From IMG/VR virus record IMGVR_UViG_3300037153_000606: DNA of 64,000 nt. One strand, given 5' to 3'. Origin of the DNA: a virus. Below the pieces are notes generated by a model. The model was not told the DNA's origin. It saw nothing but the letters and a program-made list of their open reading frames with translations, and did no database searches. Shown one piece after another: positions 10,401 through 51,622 of the stretch (position 1 is the first letter of the stretch; each line of letters opens with the position of its first letter). Made by a program: the position numbers and the translations under genes.

Positions 10401-11406
10401 CCGGACCTTCTTCAGCCGCGACCACGGCGAGGCGTTGCACTTCGCCCAGTCGCACCACGGTGATGACGCCGACGTGGTCACCGCCTACCTGCACCCGGAC
10501 CACATCGAGACCGACTCCGGCGGCGGGTGGTACCCCTCGGTGCAGGTCCGCGATGTGGCACACGCGATGGCGATCCGAGAGCCGAAGACCGCCGCGATGG
10601 TCGCCAAGGAATACGAGGGCGAGGTCGGCAACCGCAGCCACATCACCCGGGGCGAACGCGGTGAGCTGCCCATCGGCGCGGTGCAGCACATGCGCGGCGC
10701 ACGCGGGGAGCAGCCCGGCGAGCATCGCAACCGCATCGGCACGGACTGGGATGCGTTCAAGGACGACATCGCCCGCAACGGCATCAAGGAACCGATCTTC
10801 ATCACCGTCGACCACGGCCAGGAGCCGCAGCTGGCTGAGGGCAACCACCGCCGCGACGCCGCCGTCGAGCTGGGGATGACCCACATCCCGGCCGAGGTGC
10901 GTTACTTCGGCCACGCCGAGCACGAGGGCACCGTGGAGGAGCGTGCGGGACTGACCCGTCAGGCGGCCTCGTCCCGGCTGGAACGGGCCTGGGGATCGCA
11001 CGACCCGGGCACGCTGTTCGGGGATGCGCCGTCCACGTCGGCACCGTGGCCGCGTGCCGGGCGATTGAAGTCCCGACAGGACTACGACAAGGACCTGGTC
11101 CGTGAGGTGATCTCTGACCCGGAGCACCACCACATGGCCGAGATCGACCCGCGTGAGCTGCACGCCACCCAGCCGAGCATCACCCGGGCGGGCGTGGCAC
11201 ACTACCTGGGCGGCGACTACGAACGCACCGGTGAGACCTTCGCCGACAAACACAACCCCGGCAACCGCCGTCCCGTGGTGTACCGGCGCGAGGACGGGCA
11301 GAACCTGTTGTTGTCCGGGCACCACCGGGCTACGGCGGCACTGTTGCAGGGCCGCCCGCTGCGGGCGCTGGTGATCGATGGACCGTGGGGACCGGGGAGG
11401 GGATGA
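7453..11406 (+). CDS. polyvalent multi-domain protein: ART-like, RelE-like, nucleotidyltransferase, second ART-like, two ParB/Srx-like domains
   Basis: TLYHVTT..GLRS (ART); RMIHRY..LQIHTVGTH (RelE-like); FFGSEAS..ADFD (NTase); FFHGTS..GGF (ART); LAEGNHRRDAA and LLSGHHRATAA (ParB). Confidence 0.75.
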   Translation: MIRLAWADPGHRPEYEPLHEGASDDEASAHFDRQRAIKNDWQRGIRHGLSMGHLSEQEAKDRGYHPSGHETRGWQPLPHTLYHVTTNLPAVHEHGLRSRDELNQLQGKGLGGGESDTISYTEDPGTARDILHSMREFHDAVTGRTTPHQLMERARSGDMGSRPFEREMRESNAMNVDRVLRGKQHLDDSFTTQAEMDAKHGPGMTSPGPDSVAYDAPKGRVHNRWERDSTPDERQEDAAALYKHFSYWREHAGGHPDPLFFGTDVKGFAASDPAHHGIVKVHPKPGAQGYQMGSLGEWRSATGDNVEVDRSHDPHTAVQAALNEPGSREELIRHAEGTQDLYRPADGSSRPLCATHALHDEGWRRRMHEFARDVKLTDTELPEAPSMRGIGQGRCPACTEQQHELRRHAPQPQEFEKNRNRPGGAFHPEPNRYGDRGTSAPFTPLAPSLSTRENGSHERAAAGPPGLHTSDLGRGNIASRSGLRRSLDRDPAWFRLAQGEGSASGLPPIEDCDEHHPYILREHDSLDDDLEELPAWAERNYNDRAHLLLHGLEHSTTHLLTAGRMKNRGLYATSLTDNPKDNRFRMIHRYSGDRLQIHTVGTHRRTYQIGPGRADDFDRMSARVHPTQRIFGPTFGLDTRLWDGEKLRPEVRADLLHDFTRFCAAHGYRDWHRWAKVHFFGSEASEWTSPELFGNADFDTNVGIDFPAFRKANPTYAHLHNADIALMFTHQMQQELNDPADTFPGVPGVWDHTWFSNPDSWDIRKIRPYAAYDVTANEWVVKPPHLPEWSWASFPPAVRKALDAAASYAKDVLRLPEPQRTQQGAALFDAWHSDRTRAFSPHGEGWWDFANIREKFLDQLGIWKQLVDAKHHDMAGEAMSPADWSNLPFGMTAATDRWPPYLTERADEYGDVYPANESRHNPRGPVGTLEDAQQAGLVGPFFHGTSKRRGREIRAGGFRQPRLHNWEMANAGTAEEVDVGNTHRTFFSRDHGEALHFAQSHHGDDADVVTAYLHPDHIETDSGGGWYPSVQVRDVAHAMAIREPKTAAMVAKEYEGEVGNRSHITRGERGELPIGAVQHMRGARGEQPGEHRNRIGTDWDAFKDDIARNGIKEPIFITVDHGQEPQLAEGNHRRDAAVELGMTHIPAEVRYFGHAEHEGTVEERAGLTRQAASSRLERAWGSHDPGTLFGDAPSTSAPWPRAGRLKSRQDYDKDLVREVISDPEHHHMAEIDPRELHATQPSITRAGVAHYLGGDYERTGETFADKHNPGNRRPVVYRREDGQNLLLSGHHRATAALLQGRPLRALVIDGPWGPGRG
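8822..9013 (+). CDS. nested +1-frame ORF, candidate antitoxin 1
   Basis: MSELPPDHPDYIHP, paralogous to the 43296 ORF; ends at the start of a RelE-like domain. Confidence 0.6.
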   Translation: MSELPPDHPDYIHPTWEEEILRRDQDSDDHWIETPRGSDWRKAREARRASRRSKTATSTIPTS

Positions 11407-11654
11407 CGGTGGCCGAGACGCACTGGATCACGCCGTCGTTGCTCCTGGGCCGGGTTCCGGCCGGGATGCCGAGCGCGACCCGGGTGTCCTCACCGACCCA
11501 GGCGCTCGCCGCCATCTCGGCGGGGAAGATCGCGGTGTTGCCCGCCGGGGACTGGGACGGGGCGAAGAACGTGTTGCAGTGGCTCGGCCTGCCGCCGGAG
11601 ATGATCCACGATCGGCTCACCTTCGCCAGCACCGGCTACATTCCCGGGAGGTGA
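11403..11654 (+). CDS. hypothetical protein
   Basis: ATGA overlap with polyvalent gene. Confidence 0.55.
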   Translation: MTVAETHWITPSLLLGRVPAGMPSATRVSSPTQALAAISAGKIAVLPAGDWDGAKNVLQWLGLPPEMIHDRLTFASTGYIPGR

Positions 11655-17640: not shown

Positions 17641-17794
17641 GGTGGCTCCTTGTCGAGGTGGTGCGGGAGACCACTGTAGCATGACAGCTCGTGAATCACG
17701 CAACCCGAAATTGATAGCTCTCGATTAGATGCCTCGCGAAGCGACGTGCTATAGTAGAGCTACAACGAACCACCGCCTACGAGGAGCCACACTC
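17641..17794. promoter_or_regulatory. divergent sigma-A-like promoters
   Basis: -10 TATAGT (plus strand) and TACAGT (minus strand) between divergent genes; conserved leader at 17761. Confidence 0.55.
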
Positions 17795-18640
17795 ATGGAC
17801 ATCACCACCGCCACTCCGGCCGAGATCGACGCCGTCATCTTCGCCAACCTGCAGACCGTCTGGGCCGCCCGGGACTTCATCGTCCGGCTCACCGAGCAGG
17901 CGCACCGTGAGGCCGGGGACCGTAAGCAGTGGATCGGCCGCCAGGCCCGTTGGACCATGTCCGACGAGCAGGCCTGGGTCGCCGTCGACAGTGCCAAGCT
18001 CATCGCCGAGCGCGACGGCGCGCAGGCCGAGTATGAAGAGGCCTACAAGGTCATTCGCAGCCTGGACGCCGAGTACCTGCGCCGGGGTGGCTGGACCCGC
18101 GCCTATCTGGTGGACAACGCCGACGGGCACGTGCACAACACCGAGCGGTGCAGCTCGTTCCGGATGAACACCCGCTACCACTGGCTGACCGAGCAGTCCG
18201 GCAAGCCCGAGGCCGAGATCGTCGAGCTGGCGGGCGAGCGGGCCTGCACCATCTGCTACCCGTCCGCACCGGTCGACGTGCTCAGCCGCCCCTCGAAGCT
18301 TGAGGGCCCGGCCCAGGCCGCCGCCCGTGAGGCCGCCGAGGTGCGCAAGACCGAGAAGGCCGCCCGGGACGCGAAGAAGGCCGAGAAGGCGATCGCCAAC
18401 CCGGACGGTTCGCCGCTCAAGGGCAAGTACGGCCCGCTCAACACCGTGGTCAGCGCGTGGAGCGAGCTGGTCACCAACGTCTTCGACGCCCGCTACTACG
18501 GCTACCACTTCGACGCGCCGCTGCAGGACCGGATCCTGTCCGCGCTGGTGGCCAAGACCGGCCAGCCGGTCGAGGAGATCGTGGCCACGATGGAGTCCAA
18601 GGTCGCCGCCAAGGCCCGTCGGGAGAAGGTGAGCCGCTGA
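17795..18640 (+). CDS. hypothetical actinophage protein
   Basis: GGWTRAYLV..GHVH..CS..ACTIC motif; strong RBS. Confidence 0.7.
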   Translation: MDITTATPAEIDAVIFANLQTVWAARDFIVRLTEQAHREAGDRKQWIGRQARWTMSDEQAWVAVDSAKLIAERDGAQAEYEEAYKVIRSLDAEYLRRGGWTRAYLVDNADGHVHNTERCSSFRMNTRYHWLTEQSGKPEAEIVELAGERACTICYPSAPVDVLSRPSKLEGPAQAAAREAAEVRKTEKAARDAKKAEKAIANPDGSPLKGKYGPLNTVVSAWSELVTNVFDARYYGYHFDAPLQDRILSALVAKTGQPVEEIVATMESKVAAKARREKVSR

Positions 18641-29216: not shown

Positions 29217-29288
29217 GTCGCGGTGTGAAGGGCCCCGGTACTTCTTCTGGAAAAGAATCCACCCGGTGCTCATATCTGGTATCGCGGC
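29217..29288 (+). ncRNA. Y-RNA-like element 3
   Basis: GTCGCGGTGTGAAGG..GGTACTTC..GGTATCGCGGC terminal stem, immediately upstream of Ro60. Confidence 0.55.
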
Positions 29289-29308
29289 TTTACGTACTGG
29301 AGGACCCC

Positions 29309-30919
29309 ATGAGCAAGCTGGCCAAGACCAGCGCCGCCGTCACCGCAGGCGGTATCGCGGCGCTGCGTACCACCTCTACCCCGGACATCACCACCTACGA
29401 GGGCGCGCCCGGCTACTCCCGGGACGCCAAGACCGAGCTGTTCACCCTCGCGGTGGCCAACTTCGTGTCCGAGCAGACCTCCTACGAGTCGGCCCAGGAC
29501 CGCGACACCCGGTTCCGCGAGCTGATTGCACGGGTCACCGTCGAGGACCCGGAGTGGGTCGCCGACTTCCTGTCCTGGCTACGGCAGTCGGCCAACATGC
29601 GCTCGGCGGCCATCGTCGGCGCGGTCGAGTACGGGCGCGCCGTGCAGCCGCCGTACCCGATCGCCAAGCGCAAGCCGGGCACGCTGCAGGTCACCCTGAC
29701 CCCGCGCGCAGTGCTCAACTCGGTCATTTCCCGCGCCGACGAGCCCGGTGAGGCGCTGGGCTACTGGCTGGGCCGGTACGGCCGCCCGCTGCCCAAGTGG
29801 CTCAAGAAGTCGTTGGGCGACTCCGCGCTGCGGCTGTACACGCCGTTCAACTCGTTCAAGTACGACGGCCAGAGCCAGCGGGTGCGTTTCGCCGACGTGA
29901 TCGAGTTCAGCCAGATCGAGGGCGACAACCCGGTCTGGAAGTGGTTGCTCGACCGCCGTCACGGCCACGCCGAAGGTGATTACGGCATCGAGATGCTGCG
30001 CGCCCGCCAGGACCTGGAGGCACTGCCGGTGCCTGAGCGGCTGGCGCTGATCACCAGCACCGCAGTGACCGGGAGGCTGCGTGCGGCCGGGATGACCTGG
30101 GAGTCGGTGTCCGGCTGGTTGCAGGGCCCGATGGACGCCGCCGTCTGGGAGGCGCTGGTCCCGCTGATGGGCTACATGGCGTTGCTGCGCAACCTGCGCA
30201 ACTTCGACGAGGCGGGCGTGTCCGACGAGGTGGCCCAGAAGGTGTTGGAGCGGCTGACCGATCCGGAGCAGGTGGCCACGTCCCGGCAGCTGCCGTTCCG
30301 GTTCTACTCGGCCTACCAGGCCGCGCCGAGCGACCGGTGGAAGCACGGGCTGGGCAAGGCCCTGGATCTGTCGCTGCATAACGTGCCGAACCTGGACGGC
30401 CGCACCCTGGTGCTCATCGACGTATCCGGTTCGATGTCCTACTCGCCGTTGACGGCCCGTTCCTCGGTCTACCCGTGGGCCCAGGCCGCACTGTTCGGGC
30501 TGGCACTCGCGCGCTCGCAGGCCAAGGCGGCCGACGTGGTCGCGTTCGACACCTCGGTGCGCAGCTTCAAGCTGAACAAGGGTGCGAACACGCTGGCCGA
30601 GCTGGCGCGGTTCCGGGGGCTGGTCACCGGCGGCGGAACCTACACCGCGCAGGCGGTCCGGCAGACCTTCGACCCGAACCGGCACGACCGGGTCGTGGTG
30701 CTCTCCGACCAGCAGGCGCACTACGACGGGGTCGGCGTGTTCGACTCGGTGTCACACCACGTGCCGTGCTACACGTTCGACGTGGTCGGCTACCACGCCG
30801 CGCACGCGCCGACGTCGAGCACCCGGCATCTGGTCGCGGGTTTGACCGACAGTGCGTTCCAGATGATGAAGTCGCTGGAGAGCGCGGCCACCGGTCGGTG
30901 GCCGTGGCAGACTGAATGA
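29309..30919 (+). CDS. rsr: Ro60/TROVE-domain RNA-binding protein with C-terminal vWA
   Basis: TTYEG, TWE..SGW, MGYMALLRNLRN, SRQLPFRFYSAY, vWA DVSGSM and GGGT. Confidence 0.92.
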   Translation: MSKLAKTSAAVTAGGIAALRTTSTPDITTYEGAPGYSRDAKTELFTLAVANFVSEQTSYESAQDRDTRFRELIARVTVEDPEWVADFLSWLRQSANMRSAAIVGAVEYGRAVQPPYPIAKRKPGTLQVTLTPRAVLNSVISRADEPGEALGYWLGRYGRPLPKWLKKSLGDSALRLYTPFNSFKYDGQSQRVRFADVIEFSQIEGDNPVWKWLLDRRHGHAEGDYGIEMLRARQDLEALPVPERLALITSTAVTGRLRAAGMTWESVSGWLQGPMDAAVWEALVPLMGYMALLRNLRNFDEAGVSDEVAQKVLERLTDPEQVATSRQLPFRFYSAYQAAPSDRWKHGLGKALDLSLHNVPNLDGRTLVLIDVSGSMSYSPLTARSSVYPWAQAALFGLALARSQAKAADVVAFDTSVRSFKLNKGANTLAELARFRGLVTGGGTYTAQAVRQTFDPNRHDRVVVLSDQQAHYDGVGVFDSVSHHVPCYTFDVVGYHAAHAPTSSTRHLVAGLTDSAFQMMKSLESAATGRWPWQTE

Positions 30920-42481: not shown

Positions 42482-45400
42482 GTGCTGCTCACCGAGGCCG
42501 AGCTGGCCCGGAAGGCCGCGCACCAGAGCGACAACGAGCTGAACTACGCGCGGTTCGGGTGTTACCACACCGCGTTGGGCCGGGTGTTGAAGGGCCACCG
42601 CCGTGCCCTGCTCGAAGACGCCGCGATGGACCGCCCGCCGCCGGGCATCGAACCGGTCCGCCACGTCATCGAGGGTGCCCGCGCGTTCAACGCCCACCAC
42701 GGCCTGGGCGACCCGCACGGCGACGTCGACTACCACCGGGTGCGCACCCACCGGGGGTTGTTGACCGACCTGGCCAAGGCCTACGACCGGATGCCCGAGG
42801 ACGACCCCGAGGCGCACCGGCACTTCGCCGCCATGGGCCGCGAGGTGGACCGCCAGTACGAGCACATGACCAACCGGATGGGCATCCACGTCCAGGTCAC
42901 CGACCACGACCCGTACCGCGACGTGCACGAACTGCGCGAGGATGTGGCCAACAACCACCGCATCAAGGTCCTTGGCACGCACGCGACCGGCGGGCACCCG
43001 TTCTTCTCCAACGAACAGAACGACCGGTTCCGTGCGGTGCACGACCTGTTCGGGCACCTGGGCACTGGGCGCGACTTCGACCGGCACGGCGAGGAGGCCG
43101 CCTTCCAGGCGCACGCCCGGATGTTCACCCCGCAGGCTCGTGGTGCGCTCGCCTCCGAGACCCGCGCGCAGAACGCCCACCTGATCACCACCGGGCGTTT
43201 CGGTGCCCAGAAGATCGCGTTGATGCCGAAGCGGTTGTGGCACCCCGGCCTGGCGCACATGGCGGCTTCGGACCCGTCATGGGAGAATGATTTTCATGCG
43301 ATCCAGCGAGCTGCCTCCGGATCATCGGGACTACATGCATCCCGAGGTCGAGGCCGAGTTGGAACGGCGGATGAACGACGGGTACCGCTGGGACGATCCG
43401 AGTCGAGTGGCACATACCGAACGCGAGTTGCGCGAGCAGATGGACCGCGATCTGGCAGTGGCCGAAGAACACGAACGGCGACGCAGGACAGCCAGTTCGA
43501 CTTCCGCGTCCGTAGGCATCCGGGACTCGAATCCGACATCCTGAACCTGCCGTCTGAACTTCGGCCCAAGCTGCATAACCGCATTATCGAGATGGCGCGC
43601 GGCCATGAGCCGCCTGATACGCACGACCTTGACGAAGAACCATTGTCACGAGGCAGATGGCGTGCCGGGACGATCATGGACGAAACCGATCCCCAGCACG
43701 AGCAAGATCGTTGGAGGTGGATCCACCGCTACCACGGCGGCGACCTGCAGATCTTCGCCGCCGGGGCACACCATAAGCCGGGAGAGCCGGTCGATCCCGA
43801 TGCTCCTCCCGACATTTATCGACATGCCCGGGAGCGATGGGAAGACCCCGATCGGCGGTATTTCGCCGCCATCGAGTACGTCGCCATGGGCCACGCCGGA
43901 CCGGACTACACCGGGTTGAGTTTTACCGACACACAGCACCACCAGTACCGCGAGATCTCTTACCGGCGCTTACAGGCATACCATCCCGACCACGATACGC
44001 CGGTCGGCGAGATCTCCTTCTCGGTGTCCCCGCCGCACGCCAAGCGCCCGTTACCGTTGATCCAGATCGACAACGTCGGGGTGCCCGCCGAACACCGCCG
44101 CCGGGGCGTGGCCACCGCCTTGATGAACGAGCTGGAGCGGCAGTATCCGGACCACGTCATCGACCACGGGGAACGCACCAAGCCGGGGGCGGACTGGGCG
44201 AAGTCGAAGTACGGGCCGGGCCAGACCCGGGGTTGGTCCAAGGCCCGGGAACGGTTCACCACCACCGACCTCACCCTCAACGGTCGGCCCTACACCGCCA
44301 TGGGCCAAGCAGGACCGGACTACGAGGGCCTGACCTTCAAAGACATGTCCGGGTTCGAGTACGGCGCGCACCCGGACCTGCACCACCATCGATTGTTGTT
44401 CGCCAGACACCCGGACGAACCCGGGTACCTGGGCCACGTCCAGTACGAACAACACCCGCACGAGATCGAGATCCACAACCTGACCGTGCACCCGGAGTAC
44501 CAACGCCGGGGGGTGGCCAGTGCGTTGATGGGCGAACTGGAACGGCGCAATCCCGGCGTCGTGATCAACCACGGGATGCGGTCCTCGTCCGGCACGCAGT
44601 GGGCCAAGGACTTCTACGGCCACGAGGGCCCACCATTGAACAACGGCCAGCAAGGGTGGACGGTCGCCCCGCGCACCCGCGACCGGGAGAGGGTCGCCAA
44701 GCACGTCGCCGCCGAGGGATTACCGCCCGGTTACACCATGGCGGTGCGCGAGGACCCGAGCACCGAGCGGTGGGGCCTGCCCGCGCTGCACGTCAAGGTT
44801 CGCCACGGCGGTCGAGAAGTCGGCGCGTTGAGCGTGCACCAACGCGACATCGACGACGAGCGGGTCGGGCACCCGAACATCTACGTGGACCCCGAGCACC
44901 AACGCCAGGGTCTGGCCAGTGCCATGTACGCCGAGGTGCACCGGCGGTGGCCGAAGGTACCGGTGGTGCATTCCGAACACGCCAGCGATGCCGCCAAGGC
45001 GTTGAACCAGCGCCTGCTGGAGCACTTGCCGCAGTTGCACCGGCAGGCCGCCGCCGAGCGCTACTACCACGCGACGCCTTATGACTTGGATCGAGAGACG
45101 CATGTCCGGTCACCGATGGAGACAGGTCGGGAGCCGCATTGGGGTGGAATGGGCGACCAAGAGGACGCTCAGGTCTTCGGCACCCACTCCATCGAGAACG
45201 CGCACGAGTGGGGCGGCGAGATTGCCGACTCGTCCCACTACCGCATTTACGAGGTGCAGTCCGAAGGAAATGTGGAAGACCACTCTCACACCTGGGCCGC
45301 ACCCCGGGCTCGGATCCTGCGTCGGGTGCACCCTCCGGTTGCCAAGCAGGCCGCCGCCAGGCACACCATGTCATTAGCCGAACTGCGCACGTTGCCTACC

Positions 45401-47224
45401 GAGGACTACCGGGTGCGGGTGGACAAGGTGCGGGCCAAGATGGAGCACGAGTGGCGGCACGGCACGGACACCCAACGCACCTCCTGGCGCGTACACGGCG
45501 GCCCGTCGGGGTACCTGGATCAGCTCGGTGCCGACATCACCGCGCACGGCATCACCGAACCGATCGTCATCGGGCACCGGCCCAATGGGCGCACCACGAT
45601 CTACGACGGCACGCACCGGGCCCTGGTCGCGCACGAACAGGGCATCGACCCGGTGCCGGTCACCCATCTGGATCTGGTGCCGGGTCAGCACATTGCGTGG
45701 GACAATGGGAACCATGGCCGAGGACAAGCCCCGCCGGTACCCGTTGGACGAGAACGGGCGACCGGATCTGGCCGACGAGTGGGATCTGCCCGAGGACTGG
45801 CCCAAACCGGAGGACAATCCGTACGCGGTACGACCGGGCGAGGATCATCGCGAAGTGTTCAACCGGATGCGTACCGACGGTCGTCGCGAGAGAGAAGCTC
45901 GGGAAGCCGCCGAGAGGGAGCGCGCGGTCAAGAGCTGATTGTCCATCTCCCAGATCCGCATCCTCATCTGAAGAACGATCTCGATCGCCTCAGTGATGAC
46001 GATCATGAGCATTACCTAGATCGTATTGACGTCCTCAGGACTCATGATCTCGGTGGCAATACTCATTTACTGACTCACGGTCGACTTGCTGGGTGGTCTG
46101 GTACGTACCTGCACGATGACGCCCAGACACACGTAATCGTGCATCGCCGTCGTCGATACACAAGAGTGCCTCGATTACAGGTGTTGGCGGTTGGCCCCCA
46201 TGACGAGGCATACGCGAATGCCGAGCGGCGATTGTCCAATCCCTCACGACGGTTCGCCGCCGCCGACTGGGACGAGTTCCGGCGCATCCAGGACACTCAA
46301 CGCCGCCGGTACGAGCGGCCCGGCGTCGGTGGCGACCAGGAAGACCGGGACCGGTACTTCGGCACCGGTGAGATGCGCGGGGTCGGCGAGGAACGCCTGA
46401 TCACGCCCAAGGACTGGATCACGCACTCGCGCAACCAGCGCTTCGAGGACACCGACCCGCACTTCCAGGAGCACTGGCGCGGGTACGAGCTTGGACACGC
46501 GCACGGTGCGAGCGGCAGGGTGGACGCCGAAGAGTTGGAACGCGAACACGCCCGCAGCCCGCACCAGGACCATTTCCGGGCCGGGTACGGGGAAGGACTG
46601 GAGGCCGCGATGGACCGGGTGGCGGTGTTGGTTGGACCGGGTACGCCCACGGCGGTGACCATCCCGAAGACCGCGCACGTGTCCGGCAACACCGTGGACG
46701 CCCTGCACTGCCCGTTCTGCGGTAGCGGTTCGGTCACGGCACGTTCGGACGGGTCGATCGAATGCAGCTTCTGCACCGCCGCCTACACGGTGCAGGTGCA
46801 GCCGCAGTACTCGGCGTTCCCGCAGACCGTCAACGACATGCCCTACCCGTGGCCGGGCCGCGACGACCTGGGTGCGGGCGGCCTACCGGGTGGCGTAGTA
46901 GACGAACAGGACGGCGAGCAGGACGAAGCCGACGGCGAGCAGGATGGCGACGGGTCGGTCCCGCCCTGGTTGGGTGGCGGTGAAGGAGATGACCAGGACG
47001 CCGAAGACGAGGCAGACGAGGGCGAGGATGAGGACGAGCCCGAGGATGACGAGGCGTCCGTCCATGGCAGCAAGGCTCCTCCGTTCGGCAAGAAGAAGTC
47101 CTACCTGAACACACGTGGGCAGGAATTGTCCGAAGAGGACTACTTGCGGCACTTGGCGATCCTGGTCAGCCCGGACCCGGCGGCCATGGCGGCGAAGGTC
47201 AGGAAGCAGCGGGTGGGTGCGTGA
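42482..47224 (+). CDS. polyvalent protein: unknown N-domain, RelE-like, three GNAT, Arr/ART-like, ParB-like, second RelE-like, C-terminal zinc ribbon
   Basis: HRRRGVATALM, YQRRGVASALM and HQRQGLASAM (GNAT motif A); RYYHAT..IYEV; IYDGTHRALVA; CPFCGSG..CSFC. Confidence 0.78.
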   Translation: MLLTEAELARKAAHQSDNELNYARFGCYHTALGRVLKGHRRALLEDAAMDRPPPGIEPVRHVIEGARAFNAHHGLGDPHGDVDYHRVRTHRGLLTDLAKAYDRMPEDDPEAHRHFAAMGREVDRQYEHMTNRMGIHVQVTDHDPYRDVHELREDVANNHRIKVLGTHATGGHPFFSNEQNDRFRAVHDLFGHLGTGRDFDRHGEEAAFQAHARMFTPQARGALASETRAQNAHLITTGRFGAQKIALMPKRLWHPGLAHMAASDPSWENDFHAIQRAASGSSGLHASRGRGRVGTADERRVPLGRSESSGTYRTRVARADGPRSGSGRRTRTATQDSQFDFRVRRHPGLESDILNLPSELRPKLHNRIIEMARGHEPPDTHDLDEEPLSRGRWRAGTIMDETDPQHEQDRWRWIHRYHGGDLQIFAAGAHHKPGEPVDPDAPPDIYRHARERWEDPDRRYFAAIEYVAMGHAGPDYTGLSFTDTQHHQYREISYRRLQAYHPDHDTPVGEISFSVSPPHAKRPLPLIQIDNVGVPAEHRRRGVATALMNELERQYPDHVIDHGERTKPGADWAKSKYGPGQTRGWSKARERFTTTDLTLNGRPYTAMGQAGPDYEGLTFKDMSGFEYGAHPDLHHHRLLFARHPDEPGYLGHVQYEQHPHEIEIHNLTVHPEYQRRGVASALMGELERRNPGVVINHGMRSSSGTQWAKDFYGHEGPPLNNGQQGWTVAPRTRDRERVAKHVAAEGLPPGYTMAVREDPSTERWGLPALHVKVRHGGREVGALSVHQRDIDDERVGHPNIYVDPEHQRQGLASAMYAEVHRRWPKVPVVHSEHASDAAKALNQRLLEHLPQLHRQAAAERYYHATPYDLDRETHVRSPMETGREPHWGGMGDQEDAQVFGTHSIENAHEWGGEIADSSHYRIYEVQSEGNVEDHSHTWAAPRARILRRVHPPVAKQAAARHTMSLAELRTLPTEDYRVRVDKVRAKMEHEWRHGTDTQRTSWRVHGGPSGYLDQLGADITAHGITEPIVIGHRPNGRTTIYDGTHRALVAHEQGIDPVPVTHLDLVPGQHIAWDNGNHGRGQAPPVPVGRERATGSGRRVGSARGLAQTGGQSVRGTTGRGSSRSVQPDAYRRSSRERSSGSRREGARGQELIVHLPDPHPHLKNDLDRLSDDDHEHYLDRIDVLRTHDLGGNTHLLTHGRLAGWSGTYLHDDAQTHVIVHRRRRYTRVPRLQVLAVGPHDEAYANAERRLSNPSRRFAAADWDEFRRIQDTQRRRYERPGVGGDQEDRDRYFGTGEMRGVGEERLITPKDWITHSRNQRFEDTDPHFQEHWRGYELGHAHGASGRVDAEELEREHARSPHQDHFRAGYGEGLEAAMDRVAVLVGPGTPTAVTIPKTAHVSGNTVDALHCPFCGSGSVTARSDGSIECSFCTAAYTVQVQPQYSAFPQTVNDMPYPWPGRDDLGAGGLPGGVVDEQDGEQDEADGEQDGDGSVPPWLGGGEGDDQDAEDEADEGEDEDEPEDDEASVHGSKAPPFGKKKSYLNTRGQELSEEDYLRHLAILVSPDPAAMAAKVRKQRVGA
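43296..43544 (+). CDS. nested +1-frame ORF, candidate antitoxin 2
   Basis: MRSSELPPDHRDYMHP, paralogous to the 8822 ORF; ends just inside the start of a RelE-like domain. Confidence 0.6.
   Translation: MRSSELPPDHRDYMHPEVEAELERRMNDGYRWDDPSRVAHTERELREQMDRDLAVAEEHERRRRTASSTSASVGIRDSNPTS
45714..45938 (+). CDS. nested +1-frame ORF, candidate antitoxin 3
   Basis: acidic MAEDKPRRYPLDENGRPDLADEWDLPEDW; same start signal; stops just before a RelE-like domain. Confidence 0.5.
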   Translation: MAEDKPRRYPLDENGRPDLADEWDLPEDWPKPEDNPYAVRPGEDHREVFNRMRTDGRREREAREAAERERAVKS

Positions 47225-47535
47225 CCTCCTCGGCCACCGTCACCGCGTTGCTCGCCGACTACGACCTCGGCGAGTTCGCCCGCGCCTCCGAGCATCCGTG
47301 CCAGGCGTCCCGGTTCCACTCACCGCGCCCGTTGTTGACCCGCCATTACGACTTCGGCACCCATTACGTCTCGTACTGGTTGTGCGGCACCTGCGCGGGC
47401 AACATCCAGATGTTCCTGTTGGTACACGAGAACGAGGGCGAGCTGCCCTGGTCCACGCTGCGCGAGTTCGGCAACGAAGTACGCCGTATCGGCAACACCA
47501 TTATCCTGCGCCGCCAGCAGGCCAGCCGTGGCTAG
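47221..47535 (+). CDS. hypothetical protein
   Basis: overlaps neighbours; Cys/His motif. Confidence 0.55.
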   Translation: MTSSATVTALLADYDLGEFARASEHPCQASRFHSPRPLLTRHYDFGTHYVSYWLCGTCAGNIQMFLLVHENEGELPWSTLREFGNEVRRIGNTIILRRQQASRG

Positions 47536-50323
47536 TTTCGTCGTCACCGACAACCGGGGCCGCCGGGTGCCGTTGCCCAACGGCACGGCAGGCCCGCCAA
47601 ACGGGTTCTCGCGGATCTCCACCCGGCGGGTCACCGAGGCCGACCAGCAGGGTTTCTCCTCGCGCGGGTTGCCCTTCGGCACGCCGGACGTCAACGCCGC
47701 CGTGACGCACGCCCGGGCGCAGAAGCTGACCCACGCCTCACGGATGCGCCGCACCGGGGCGTACGGCGGCGGCACCGCGTCGATGCAGTTGGCCACCTCC
47801 CGGCCGCGCGACCCGATGTGGTACTGGAAGCAGAACAACATCCCCTTCGACTTCACCGAGCCGGAGGAGCTGGCCAAGATCCGGGAGTTCTGCACCACGC
47901 CGGACACCCCGGTCACCATGGCCGACAACTCCAGCAAGCCGATCGGCACCGTGGCGGTCGGCGAATCGGTGTACGGGTGGACCTACCGGTTGCACGTCAA
48001 CGGCGGTTTGGAACGCAACTGGGTCGCCTCGAAGGTGATCGCGGTCGGGGTGAAGCAGGCCCCGGTGGTCACCGTGACGCTGGCCAGCGGGGCCACGGTC
48101 ACCTGTACCGCCGACCACCGGTGGGCGAACCCGAACTTCACCAAGTTGCAGCGCACCGAGCGGATCGGGCCGTGGGTGCAGGCCGACTCGGCCACCGAGT
48201 ACCAGAGCGCGCAGGTCGGCACCGCGTTGTTGGCCGCGTCCAACTGCCGGGTCGAGCACAACGCGCGTGGGTACGGCTACCCGGCCGCCGACACGTTCGA
48301 GGACAAGGTGATCTCGGTCGAGCCGGTGCTCGACGAGGACGGCGTGTTGGTCTACACCGACGTGGTCTCGCTGCAGACGCTGACCGGCAACTACATCGCG
48401 GGCGGGTACTGCAGCAAGAACTGCCGCCTGCTCTACGTGACGCACCCGATCGTGAGTGCCTGCATCGACGTCTACTCCAAGCTGCCTATGCAGGGGATGG
48501 CATTCACTTGTAAGGACCCGCAGCTGGTCGACTTCTACACCGACCTGTTCTTCGACCAACTGAATTACGAGGACTTCCTGCTCGACCTGGGCACCGAGTA
48601 CTGGCTCTCCGGGGAGAGCTGGGGCCTGGGCGGTTGGAACGACACGCTGGGCGTGTGGGAGTCCGACGCGCTGATCAACCCCGACGACGTCGAGGTGGAG
48701 AACTCGCTGTTCCAGCCCGAGCCGCGCTACCTGATGCGGTTGCCCGAGTCGCTGCGCAAGATCCTCACCACCCGCACCCCGCACTGGCAGTACACCCAGC
48801 TGGTCACCAAGTGGCCGGAGCTGGCCAACTACGCGTCCGAGGACGCGCTGATGCCGGTCTCGAACTACATCCTCAAGCAGCTGCGGTTCAAGGCGGATCG
48901 GTTCTCCAACCGGGGCATCCCGATTTTGATGCGCGGGTTCCGCACCCTGATCCAGGAGGAGATGCTCAACTCCGCGCTGGATTCCATCGCGGACCGGCTC
49001 TACACCCCGCTGATCCTGACCAAGCTGGGCGCGACCGCGCAGGACCTGGGCACTAACGTGCCGTGGATCCCTACCCAGGACGAGATGGAGGACTTCAACG
49101 CGGTGCTGGACGCCGCGCTGGCCGCCGACTTCCGCGCCTTGACCTACCACTGGGCCGTCGACATGCAGCCGGTGTTCGGCCGGGAGAACGTGCCGGACCT
49201 GTCCAACGACTTCGACCGGATCGTGGAACGCATCCTGATGGTCTTCGGGCTGAGCCAGACCATGCTCACCGGAGCCGAGGCGGGCGAGACGTACGCCGCC
49301 GACGCACTGAACCGCGACGTGGTCACCCAGCTGCTCTCGCACTACCAGAAGATGATCTCGCGCTACGTGCACGACCGGGCCGCGATCGTCGCCGAGGCGC
49401 AGGAGCACTACGACTACGAGGTGCGCCAGGGCCGCCGGTACCTGGTCACCGAGGAGATCTACGAGGTGGACGAGGAGACCGGCGAGGAGCGCATCGTCGA
49501 GCAGCCCAAGCTGTTGGTGCCCGACCTCGAATTCAAGACGCTCAACATCTCCGACGAGGAGGACGAGCGGCAGTTCGTCGAGACGCTGGCCGCAGCGGGC
49601 GTGCCGGTGCCCTACCGAGCCCGGCTGACCACCACCGGCATCGACTTCGACGAGGCGATCGAGGAGCGCTCCCAGGAGGACGTGGCGCTCGCGGTGGCCG
49701 AGCAGGAGACCCGCAAGAAGACATTCCAGGCGTTGCAGCGGGCCGGTCTGCCCATCGCCGCCGACCTGGCCCAGGACTTCTCCCCGAAGGCGATCCAGCC
49801 CGGCAACGAGCCCGCGCTGGGCATGGACGGGCAGGACGCGCTGCTCAACCCGTTGGGTCTCGCCCCCACCGACCTGCCCGCGCTCGCGCCGACCCAGGAC
49901 GACCTGGACCAGGACACCGGCATCGAGGACACCAATGCGCCGCCGTCCGACCAGGGCGACGGGTACGGGCCCGGCGGTGAGGGTGACTACCCGGGCCGCC
50001 CGGAGGAGTCCGACGAGGAGCGTGACGGCATGCCGACCTCCAACCAGCGCGCGGCCAGCCTGGCATCCGGTTCTCCGGACACCAAACCGCCGATCACCAA
50101 GATCTCCGGCTACCAGATCGGGCAGCGCTTCGGGATCCGCCAGGCGGTTGCCGAGCACTACGTCGCGCCGGACAACTCCGAGGAGGAGAACGCCCGCGAC
50201 TTCCGGCCCACCGGCCGGTTCGGCGCGCCCCGGGTGCTCGGCATGCGCCAGTACCTGAACCTGGGCGGCGTGCCGACCCGGGTGGCCAAGCGGCCCCGTG
50301 GCGAGGAGGACGCAGATGGCTAA
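47528..50323 (+). CDS. portal protein, intein-containing
   Basis: HPIVSACIDVYSK, EYWLSGE, LINPDDVEV and GIPILMR pattern of large-actinophage portals; acidic tail. Confidence 0.72.
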   Translation: MASFVVTDNRGRRVPLPNGTAGPPNGFSRISTRRVTEADQQGFSSRGLPFGTPDVNAAVTHARAQKLTHASRMRRTGAYGGGTASMQLATSRPRDPMWYWKQNNIPFDFTEPEELAKIREFCTTPDTPVTMADNSSKPIGTVAVGESVYGWTYRLHVNGGLERNWVASKVIAVGVKQAPVVTVTLASGATVTCTADHRWANPNFTKLQRTERIGPWVQADSATEYQSAQVGTALLAASNCRVEHNARGYGYPAADTFEDKVISVEPVLDEDGVLVYTDVVSLQTLTGNYIAGGYCSKNCRLLYVTHPIVSACIDVYSKLPMQGMAFTCKDPQLVDFYTDLFFDQLNYEDFLLDLGTEYWLSGESWGLGGWNDTLGVWESDALINPDDVEVENSLFQPEPRYLMRLPESLRKILTTRTPHWQYTQLVTKWPELANYASEDALMPVSNYILKQLRFKADRFSNRGIPILMRGFRTLIQEEMLNSALDSIADRLYTPLILTKLGATAQDLGTNVPWIPTQDEMEDFNAVLDAALAADFRALTYHWAVDMQPVFGRENVPDLSNDFDRIVERILMVFGLSQTMLTGAEAGETYAADALNRDVVTQLLSHYQKMISRYVHDRAAIVAEAQEHYDYEVRQGRRYLVTEEIYEVDEETGEERIVEQPKLLVPDLEFKTLNISDEEDERQFVETLAAAGVPVPYRARLTTTGIDFDEAIEERSQEDVALAVAEQETRKKTFQALQRAGLPIAADLAQDFSPKAIQPGNEPALGMDGQDALLNPLGLAPTDLPALAPTQDDLDQDTGIEDTNAPPSDQGDGYGPGGEGDYPGRPEESDEERDGMPTSNQRAASLASGSPDTKPPITKISGYQIGQRFGIRQAVAEHYVAPDNSEEENARDFRPTGRFGAPRVLGMRQYLNLGGVPTRVAKRPRGEEDADG
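47891..48421 (+). mobile_element. mini-intein (177 aa, no homing endonuclease)
   Basis: block A CTTPDTPVTMAD, block B TCTADHRW, block F/G VVSLQTLTGNYIAGGYCSKN followed by Cys+1. Confidence 0.88.
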
Positions 50324-51344
50324 GTGGCGGGTCGGCCGCAAGGTCGGGCGGACGATCTATATCCAGTCCGGTGACACGCCTTCCGACGGTGACGAGTTGA
50401 TCGGCCTGATGGACTCCATCGAGCTGGCCCAGGAGGCCGTGGACGCGGTGAACGCCCTCGACGAGCCGGAGCCCGACGATGACGATTGAGGCGTTCGCGC
50501 CACCCGAGCCTGAGTCGCCGCGTTGCCCGGAGACCGGTGACATCTGTGTCCGGGATTGTCTGGTGGGATGTTTCGAGCGGTGGTCGCACCGGGAACGTCA
50601 TCAGGAACAGACCACCAGACTGATCGGAAAGACCGAGGAGTTGGTGCGCACCTCGGCGACACTTGGGCATCGGTGCAGTTTGCGGCGTTGGTACGACCCT
50701 GCGCGCCGTATGACCTACATCCAGTGCGACGATGTCCGGCAGCCTGTGACCGATCAAGCGCTGTTTGTCGCCGAAGACCCGGAGTACGTCGTAGCGCTCG
50801 CCACTTATCGAGTAGTGCGTGATGCGCATCCGGAACCTGAGCCCCGTGATGTGTGAGGTCGGCGCGCGCTGCCCGAACTGCGGCCAGCCCGAACTGGACG
50901 CCGACGAGGTGCACTGTTGCACCATCAACGGCCGGGCGCAGCGCATCTACATCTGCCACGACTGCGAGGCCGAGGTGGTCGTCAGCGTGCTCGTGCCGGA
51001 GTCGGTGCGGGCATGATCGTCGGGCCGGTGCCCACCTGGACCTACGGGCGGACCATCACCCGGTGCTTCAGGTTCGTCCCGGTCACCGTCAACGGTCGGC
51101 TGTGGTGGTTCATGTGGACCCCGTGAGCACCGCCGCGCCGGAATGGCTGCCCGAGCGTGCGCTGTACTGGGAGCAGCTGCCGTTCCTGGTGCACGACGGC
51201 GACACGGTCCAACCCGGCCAGCTGGAGTGGCAGCGCCCGGACGGGCAGGTGTTCACCTTCCGCGCGATGCGCTGGCATCTGGAGCGTCACGACTGGGTCG
51301 ACTACCTGGTCATCGACGCGTGGGAGAAGATCGCGCGGCCATGA
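50316..51344 (+). other. small hypothetical genes (50316-50489, 50479-50856, 50822-51016, 51013-51126, 51123-51344)
   Basis: overlapping short ORFs. Confidence 0.5.
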
Positions 51345-51622
51345 GGATCACCGAGGGCGAACTGCGCGAGCGGTTCGGGTACTCGCCCAACCCGGACCGC
51401 GCACACGCCGCCGCCCAGGCCGACGTGCACCGCCGCCTGTTGCAGGTGGCCGTAGTGATGTCCAACGTGCTCCCGCAGGGCCGGGAGGCCACTTTGGTCA
51501 TCACCAAGCTGGAGGAGGCACTGTTCTGGGCGGACGCCGCGATCGCGCGCACCGAGCACCTGCCGGTACGGCGCGGACGCCCGCCCCGCGAGATCATCGA
51601 TCAGCCGTTGCCGGAGAACTGA
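51341..51622 (+). CDS. Acb2/Tad1-like helical hairpin protein (candidate nucleotide-signal sponge)
   Basis: RFGY..LPQGREATLVITKLEEALFWADAAIAR. Confidence 0.6.
   Translation: MRITEGELRERFGYSPNPDRAHAAAQADVHRRLLQVAVVMSNVLPQGREATLVITKLEEALFWADAAIARTEHLPVRRGRPPREIIDQPLPEN

Follow-up and report, generated by a model that had tools for sequence, protein, structure and literature searches.

Type II toxin–antitoxin modules of the RelE/ParE type, such as relBE, dinJ-yafQ, yefM-yoeB, and paaA2-parE2, encode a small acidic partner upstream of the toxin, and the coding region of this partner overlaps the start of the RelE-fold region. PaaA2-type antitoxins are short helical partners without a DNA-binding domain. 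A similar arrangement is found in a 64,000-nucleotide stretch of viral DNA (IMG/VR record IMGVR_UViG_3300037153_000606), which was analyzed as a whole and is referred to here as the window. Three cassettes of about 0.5 kb sit in frame inside two long open reading frames (ORFs) of the window, 7444-11406 and 42482-47224. In each cassette, an apparently genuine gene for a small acidic protein is nested in the +1 frame of the long ORF, directly upstream of and overlapping the coding region of a RelE-fold domain in the main frame, which is the order seen in toxin–antitoxin pairs. The nested peptide also resembles the PaaA2-type partners. Unlike type II modules, the toxin-fold unit here is an internal domain of a polyprotein of 1320 or 1580 amino acids and lacks its own start codon. 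The partner is overprinted on the polyprotein frame, neither side matches a sequence family, and neutralization is a putative function.

Antitoxin and toxin can also be joined in one gene, and EzeT is such a fused antitoxin–toxin module. In YefM–YoeB and ribbon-helix-helix (RHH)–YoeB single-gene fusions, the antitoxin part is N-terminal to the RelE/ParE-superfamily domain (mBio 2025, PMC11980606). The antitoxin of these fusions is read in the same frame and covalently linked, whereas the small protein of the phage cassettes is encoded in the +1 frame and would form a polypeptide of its own.

Embedded genes with their own starts are represented by lambda Rz1, a spanin gene in the +1 frame of Rz, and by the competence regulator comS, which sits inside the giant multi-domain ORF srfA of Bacillus subtilis. 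Unlike the cassettes, Rz1 and comS have no association with a toxin fold and do not recur as duplicated units. In Synechocystis slr0489, an internal out-of-frame protein neutralizes the toxic protein of the host frame; for slr0489, slr1079, and slr1082, both frames are translated, the products interact, and the nested product is acidic (2026 preprint, bioRxiv 10.64898/2025.12.20.695498). The phage cassettes share the internal out-of-frame ORF and the acidic nested product with this system. They differ in that the Synechocystis host is a 151-amino-acid membrane protein mostly covered by the nested ORF and in that the two systems have no sequence relation. The phage ORFs occupy inter-domain spacers of giant polyproteins, stand before RelE-fold domains, and recur three times.

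The polyproteins themselves belong with the polyvalent proteins of phages. The paper that defined them found a BECR-fold clade in up to 26% of polyvalent proteins and suggested that these proteins enter the host by injection and attack its RNA (Iyer, Burroughs, Anand, de Souza & Aravind 2017, PMC5512222). In that description, GNAT, ParB-like, and BECR-fold domains are brought together in multi-domain proteins of the head or virion module. Both host ORFs of the window likewise place several unrelated effector-type domains in one polypeptide and lie among head genes. They differ from the PBECR proteins in that their RelE-fold domains match no Pfam family, and hence no PBECR model that Pfam may contain, and have the classical RelE topology. 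A term search of that paper gave no mention of overlapping or frameshifted genes, and the passages it returned on antitoxins and immunity concern no partner for PBECR domains. BECR-fold domains in polyvalent proteins, antitoxin–toxin fusions, embedded +1 genes, and a neutralizing gene-in-gene are already known separately. A literature search found no case in which an antidote-like gene overprints the inter-domain spacer of a polyvalent protein and recurs before each toxin-fold domain.

Nested +1 frames in three cassettes

Cassettes 2 and 3 lie in the 1580-amino-acid host ORF (42482..47224) and cassette 1 in the 1320-amino-acid host ORF (7444..11406), all on the + strand. In cassette 2, the junction at 43281..43298 has the form GGGAGAATG-N5-CATG and places +1 ATGs at 43287 and 43296. 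The nested ORF runs from 43287 to 43544, encodes 85 amino acids (82 from the second ATG), and ends with TGA. The main frame reads through it as a stop-free linker of 65 amino acids (43295..43489), which is 72% R/G/S/A/T, has an isoelectric point (pI) of 12, and shows off-frame codon statistics; it is followed by the RelE/ParE-superfamily-fold domain at 43490..43798. In cassette 1, the junction motif (8807-8824) opens a nested ORF of 66 amino acids (8813..9013, second ATG at 8822), and the RelE-fold domain occupies 8968..9273. In cassette 3, the junction at 45699-45716 has the form GGGACAATG-N5-CATG. Its acidic nested ORF (45705..45938) encodes 77 amino acids, or 74 from the second ATG at 45714, and the RelE-fold domain (45923..46243) begins at the stop codon of this ORF. 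Overall, the RelE-fold domain starts at the nested stop codon or at most 45 nt before it.

The initial annotation had described the overlapped ORFs of cassettes 1 and 2 as recurring paralogous genes with a common start signal. The two copies were borne out: the peptide of 43296-43544 is a paralogue of the 8822 peptide, with 16 of 26 N-terminal residues identical (BLASTP E 2e-9), and both cassettes carry GGGAGAATG-N5-CATG. The third cassette, at 45705-46243, extends the series. Cassettes 1 and 2 are the closest pair for the nested peptide and for the RelE-fold domain alike, which is consistent with a cassette that duplicated as a unit.

The coding frame of the nested stretches was assessed with a codon (triplet) model whose training set was 34 other ORFs from the window. 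At all three sites, GC content by codon position changes from the main-frame pattern to the +1 pattern and back. The codon-position signal stays in the +1 frame for about 130–230 nt per cassette and returns to the main frame at the RelE-fold domain. The codon model switches to +1 at 8810-8900, 43270-43460, and 45670-45900; in these stretches, the +1 frame scores about +11 to +33 bits per 32 codons, whereas the main frame scores about -11 to -38. The score per codon is +0.28 to +0.66 for the nested ORFs and -0.37 to -0.87 for the main frame over the same DNA. Off-frame open runs of at least 60 codons in ordinary genes have a mean of -0.83 per codon (standard deviation 0.35). No other switch within a gene has main-frame coding before and after it in any long ORF of the window. 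All three switches precede RelE-fold domains, and none occurs at any other domain boundary of the two polyproteins.

Divergence between cassettes 1 and 2 also follows the +1 frame. Over 26 alignable +1 codons, the differences at codon positions 1, 2, and 3 number 7, 7, and 18. The third-position bias, whose absence the initial annotation had named as grounds for rejection, is therefore present. In the +1 frame, 9 codon changes are synonymous and 10 are non-synonymous; in the main frame over the same codons, the corresponding numbers are 1 and 18. The proposed selection on the hidden frame is upheld by these counts. By this codon comparison, the main-frame similarity between the two copies is a by-product of +1 conservation. 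The cassette 3 peptide has no detectable similarity to the peptides of cassettes 1 and 2 (E 11), yet it shows a strong +1 codon signal. Pipeline gene callers picked the nested ORFs wherever a contig end had cut off the upstream polyprotein. The cassette 2 ORF was chosen as an 85-amino-acid gene on a 1277-nt contig (P0001), and the cassette 3 ORF was chosen as a 74-amino-acid gene on two contigs (L002 466-690 and L003 6-230).

The main frame is also kept open. In a shuffle test, the nested peptide and its codon set were held fixed and synonymous codons were shuffled 20,000 times. The main frame was stop-free in 2.7%, 0.7%, and 1.0% of the shuffles for cassettes 1, 2, and 3, respectively, with a mean of 2.6–3.4 expected main-frame stops. 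Calibration on ordinary genes gave 76 observed stops against 96 expected. Control windows with a shuffle value below 3% were never stop-free (0/19), and those with a value of 3–10% were stop-free once (1/13). In cassette 2, the main frame from about 43290 to 43490 is an R/G/S/A/T-rich string within a fully open ORF of 1580 amino acids. ATG, GTG, and TTG codons that could start the RelE-fold domain separately are scarce. Cassette 1 has none suitably placed, cassette 2 has none between 43296 and 43592 (the single one lies inside the second helix), and the only candidate in cassette 3 is a GTG 144 nt upstream of the domain. The RelE-fold domains therefore depend on main-frame read-through. The main frame appears to be held open by selection, while its amino-acid sequence seems unconstrained. 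Both frames appear to be under constraint, as expected of a genuine overlapping pair.

The starts of the nested ORFs share several features. The window has three copies of the motif GGGA[GC]AATG, all of them at cassette starts (8807, 43281, and 45699); a rough estimate from base composition gives about 0.8 matches by chance. The two +1 ATGs are preserved in all three cassettes. The main-frame codons at the junction read [W/R]-[E/D]-N-x-x-H, with Asn encoded by AAT and His by CAT in every case. In this genome, AAT accounts for 7.4% of Asn codons and CAT for 13% of His codons. The T of AAT and the T of CAT create the two +1 ATGs, so that rare codons are imposed on the main frame. The junction element of cassette 2 can be read as a Shine–Dalgarno (SD)-like GGGAG or as a -10-like GAGAAT. 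Other genes of the window carry GGAG(G) 4–9 nt before the start. Judged from these motifs, SD-led initiation at GGGAG is a plausible start of the nested gene. Alternatively, GA[GC]AAT may act as a -10 element of a leaderless transcript beginning at the second ATG. A promoter scan found a full -35/-10 match in cassette 1 only (TTGGCA-18-GAGAAT) and none in cassettes 2 and 3.

RelE-fold domains and nested proteins

The three RelE-fold segments share 24–33% pairwise identity, and the domain of cassette 2 (43490-43798) is 30% identical to that of cassette 1 (E 3e-9). An AlphaFold2 (AF2) model built from a three-sequence alignment of the main-frame segments reached a predicted local distance difference test (pLDDT) score of 81 and shows the RelE-type strand order beta-alpha-alpha-beta-beta-beta. 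The top Foldseek matches to this model were YafQ, RelK, YoeB, and RelE, with template-modeling (TM) scores of 0.63–0.78. VIA Z scores were 9–11.5 over 78–88 of 103 residues at 1.8–3 Å, and the best (Z 11.5) had a root-mean-square deviation of 2.0 Å over 82 residues. The best PDB matches were Vibrio cholerae YafQ, a Helicobacter pylori toxin chain (4lsy), Mycobacterium tuberculosis RelK, YoeB, and RelE. Among the language-model neighbors of the domain are RelE/ParE clusters (0.92). All three copies share an invariant His directly behind the last strand and two invariant Arg in strands 3–4. The models support membership in the RelE/ParE-superfamily (BECR) fold. The initial annotation had spoken of a RelE-like domain, and at the level of the fold this description holds in both the AF2 and the Foldseek results. 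A further ORF of the window (17729-18637, 303 amino acids) was considered as a RelE-fold relative; its match (E 4e-4 within the window) covered only 37 profile positions and was judged spurious.

The nested proteins are 63–85 amino acids long and acidic, with pI values of 4.9–5.9 (5.3 for cassette 2). The structure predicted for the nested peptide consists of an extended N-terminus and two helices. The GC content of the cassettes is 56–62% against 66.7% in the window. The RelE-fold segments (8968-9273, 43490-43800, and 45923-46243) have 53–62% GC and weak codon-model scores in every frame. This composition suggests that the cassettes derive from a foreign source of lower GC.

Relatives were sought in several collections. 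For the nested peptide, the tblastn comparison proposed by the initial annotation gave no match in 50,697 phage records. An index of 5.8 billion proteins returned only the window's own 85-amino-acid product, and HMMER against 1.84 billion representatives returned the query itself and one repetitive, unrelated protein. Pattern scans of IMG/VR and metagenomes found none, and the ESM Atlas gave no usable match. For the RelE-fold domain, tblastn against phages and plasmids gave one weak, irrelevant match, the protein index returned only the query at both domain and polyprotein length, and scans of IMG/VR and metagenomes found none. A profile search of PDB sequences returned no RelE-type chain. A scan of genome contigs yielded a single match, which was rejected because it is RecC and shares an eight-residue word by chance.

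Proposed role of the nested protein and alternative explanations

We propose that translation from an internal start yields the overprinted small acidic protein and that this protein, probably as a cis-encoded antitoxin or immunity protein, silences the RelE-fold domain behind it. The probability of this reading is put slightly above one half, at roughly 0.55. Ribosomes that make the polyprotein would read through the nested gene and yield a basic R/G/S-rich spacer, in which the absence of stop codons is the sole visible constraint, followed by the RelE-fold domain. Other ribosomes would initiate at the internal ATG and produce the small acidic protein, which ends where the RelE-fold domain begins. 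The small protein would then bind and silence the domain encoded just downstream on the same mRNA. The producer cell would be protected during synthesis of the polyprotein, and perhaps during packaging, and the RelE-fold domain would be free to act once delivered without the small protein. The antidote role is inferred from the position, size, and charge of the nested protein and from its exclusive association with RelE-fold domains.

Several observations weigh against this reading. The fold model rests on a three-sequence alignment, and its five models span pLDDT values from 49 to 81. The three domains match no toxin family in Pfam or NCBIfam (E up to 1–10), so the RelE-like designation fails for any sequence family. 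They are also near-neutral, with pI values of 5.9–6.7; RelE toxins are mostly basic, and such values are unusual for ribosome-dependent RNases. The model of the nested peptide is weak (pLDDT 65), and family-model searches matched the nested peptides to no antitoxin or other known family. No DNA-binding domain (RHH, Phd/YefM, or helix-turn-helix) was found in the nested peptide by family match or in the model, a feature that is not universal among antitoxins. At the start, GGAG lies 10 nt from the second ATG, at the long end for genes of this genome, and the SD-like element of cassette 3 is merely GGGAC. The +1 frame is open in 25–30% of 60–70-codon windows of ordinary genes, and main-frame synonymous shuffles keep it open in 0.39, 0.16, and 0.28 of trials for the three cassettes, which is not significant. 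Since +1 openness is common in this 67% GC genome, ORF length alone is no evidence. Cassettes 1 and 2 could also have been captured separately from free-standing operons, in which case purifying selection would predate the nesting. Finally, three paralogous cassettes in one genome form the whole basis of the proposal, and no homologues occur in any collection searched.

The nested protein could be real, with both frames in use, and serve another purpose, such as a chaperone for assembly or packaging, a removed scaffold, a factor regulating translation of the polyprotein, or an effector that acts independently and has only the mRNA in common. We consider this unlikely. The evidence for +1 selection is silent on function. 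The lack of an antitoxin family match for the peptide agrees with such a role, as do the RelE-fold domains, which lack a basic pI and fit no toxin model. The motif common to cassettes 1 and 2 is N-terminal, far from the toxin-fold domain, and is 62% conserved compared with 30% for the domains. However, the nested ORF is found solely before RelE-fold domains (3/3), and the other domain boundaries are without one. Nested ORF and domain group alike, with cassettes 1 and 2 closest, as expected of a co-duplicating unit, and the upstream position, small size, and acidity fit the antitoxin-first order of type II modules. Another explanation treats the +1 frame as a fossil: the polyprotein gene took up a free-standing antitoxin–toxin operon, translation of the small ORF has since ceased, its +1 coding signature is a remnant, and the main-frame spacer alone is of importance. 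The low GC of the cassettes fits a foreign origin, avoidance of main-frame stops suffices for this model, and openness of the +1 frame is not significant by itself. On the other hand, the junction and the frame relation are common to the three cassettes, which points to one capture followed by duplication, and the synonymous-biased divergence of cassettes 1 and 2 then accrued while they were nested. Both ATGs survive in the diverged cassette 3 against the main-frame codon bias, and this cassette has also kept its strong +1 codon signal. A fossil frame is rated as quite improbable.

Programmed +1 frameshifting at the junction would fuse the upstream domains to the segment encoded in +1. Without any internal initiation, the polyprotein would then occur in truncated isoforms ending ahead of each RelE-fold domain, and selection on +1 would likewise be accounted for. 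An SD-like GGGAG stands just upstream of the switch, and TTT-C in cassette 2 could let tRNA-Phe re-pair in the +1 frame. The +1 shift of prfB is a known case of SD stimulation. Against this, the junctions (GAT TTT CAT, GGA TCA CAT, and GGG AAC CAT) have no conserved shift-prone codon, and no X XXY YYZ heptamer is common to the three cassettes; a single CCCAAAC is present in cassette 3 only. Neither the junctions nor the return points contain a slippery codon or heptamer shared by all cassettes, or a homopolymer of five or more. There is thus little support for programmed frameshifting or transcriptional slippage. The two conserved +1 ATGs would also be unneeded for a frameshift, and we regard frameshifting as very unlikely. 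Sequencing or assembly indels could turn ordinary in-frame domains into apparent frame switches, and paired +1 and -1 switches are indeed the outcome of two indels. Such an origin would call for six independent indels in constant order, together with the conserved ATGs. In addition, JGI contigs (up to 150 kb long) assembled from separate metagenome samples contain the same DNA or protein, as do Logan contigs built from three SRA runs. The identity is 100% across 7,976 bp for contig L002 and 99.97% across 3,088 bp for L003; the 1580-amino-acid product in the Logan contigs differs only in the reading of the start codon. The identical sequence in independent assemblies rules out an assembly artefact, and indels as the source of the switches are hardly credible. 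Members of the 90% cluster of the polyprotein all come from the same phage, so they offer no divergence to analyze.

If the nested protein is a cis-encoded antidote, the cassette may further be a portable in-frame module, composed of start signal, +1 antidote, and start-less RelE-fold domain, that is self-contained and can be inserted between any pair of domains in a polyprotein delivered by the virion. This extension is tentative and is held to be doubtful.

Genomic setting and significance

The window has a GC content of 66.7%, and its source is an uncultured, high-GC phage of about 150 kb that is distantly related to Mycobacterium cluster C (Bixzunavirus) phages. Its portal gene (47528-50320, PHROG E 1e-137) encodes a protein about 40% identical to the portals of these phages. 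The host ORF 42482-47224 lies just upstream of the portal gene, with a gap of about 300 nt. It contains three GNAT domains, a Lar-like zinc ribbon, two RelE-fold domains, a ParB-like segment, and an N-terminal domain related to gp99 of Mycobacterium phage Alice. The N-terminal 270 residues are 48% identical to Alice gp99, a head-region protein of 433 amino acids that stands alone and has no cassette. An IMG/VR relative of this N-terminal domain (L001) is also without the RelE-fold cassette. L001 (IMG/VR UViG 3300032236_001244) is a lower-GC phage that encodes two adjacent giant proteins of 1280 and more than 1330 amino acids at 3618-11458. A KGD-x-x-GH-x-FHGNQ[YW] motif is repeated between the domains of these proteins, and one domain is homologous to the N-terminus of ORF 42482-47224. 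The other host ORF, 7444-11406, contains one ParB-like segment and one RelE-fold domain and follows the terminase large-subunit gene (3688-6207) at a distance of about 1.2 kb.

Other parts of the window also merit mention. A strong +1 coding signal (40–55 bits per 32 codons) lies at 3760-4190, within the 5' portion of the stop-to-stop ORF 3664-6207, which includes the terminase. PHROG matches of the terminase ORF (840 amino acids) start only at about residue 257. The signal most likely marks a separate upstream gene of about 140 amino acids, with the terminase starting later; alternatively, the terminase may be split or frameshifted. At 29225-30919, a phage protein of 564 amino acids combines a TROVE (Ro60-like) domain (E 2e-17) with a following vWA domain. 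Ro60 homologues usually act with small Y-like RNAs. A few genes downstream of the portal, a 93-amino-acid gene (51341-51622; L002 6093-6374) belongs to the Acb2/Tad1 hairpin family (PF24729), and by this family assignment its product is likely a sponge for cyclic-nucleotide defense signals.

Polyvalent proteins often carry RNase-type toxin domains, and their defining paper leaves unexplained how a phage keeps these domains from poisoning its late gene expression. If the proposed role is correct, an antidote overprinted before each toxin domain would answer this question of self-poisoning. It would also represent a new toxin–antitoxin layout, in which the toxin is a domain and the antitoxin is a frame. 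Should the cassette prove portable, the antidote would be made in cis in the producer cell and remain unattached, the toxin domain would reach the next host unprotected, and phages would have a safe and general means of carrying toxins. Because of their position within long ORFs, such genes would systematically escape standard gene callers. The combination of the stop-avoidance shuffle and the codon-model frame scan is applicable to phage polyproteins in general and could reveal analogous cassettes that have no sequence similarity.

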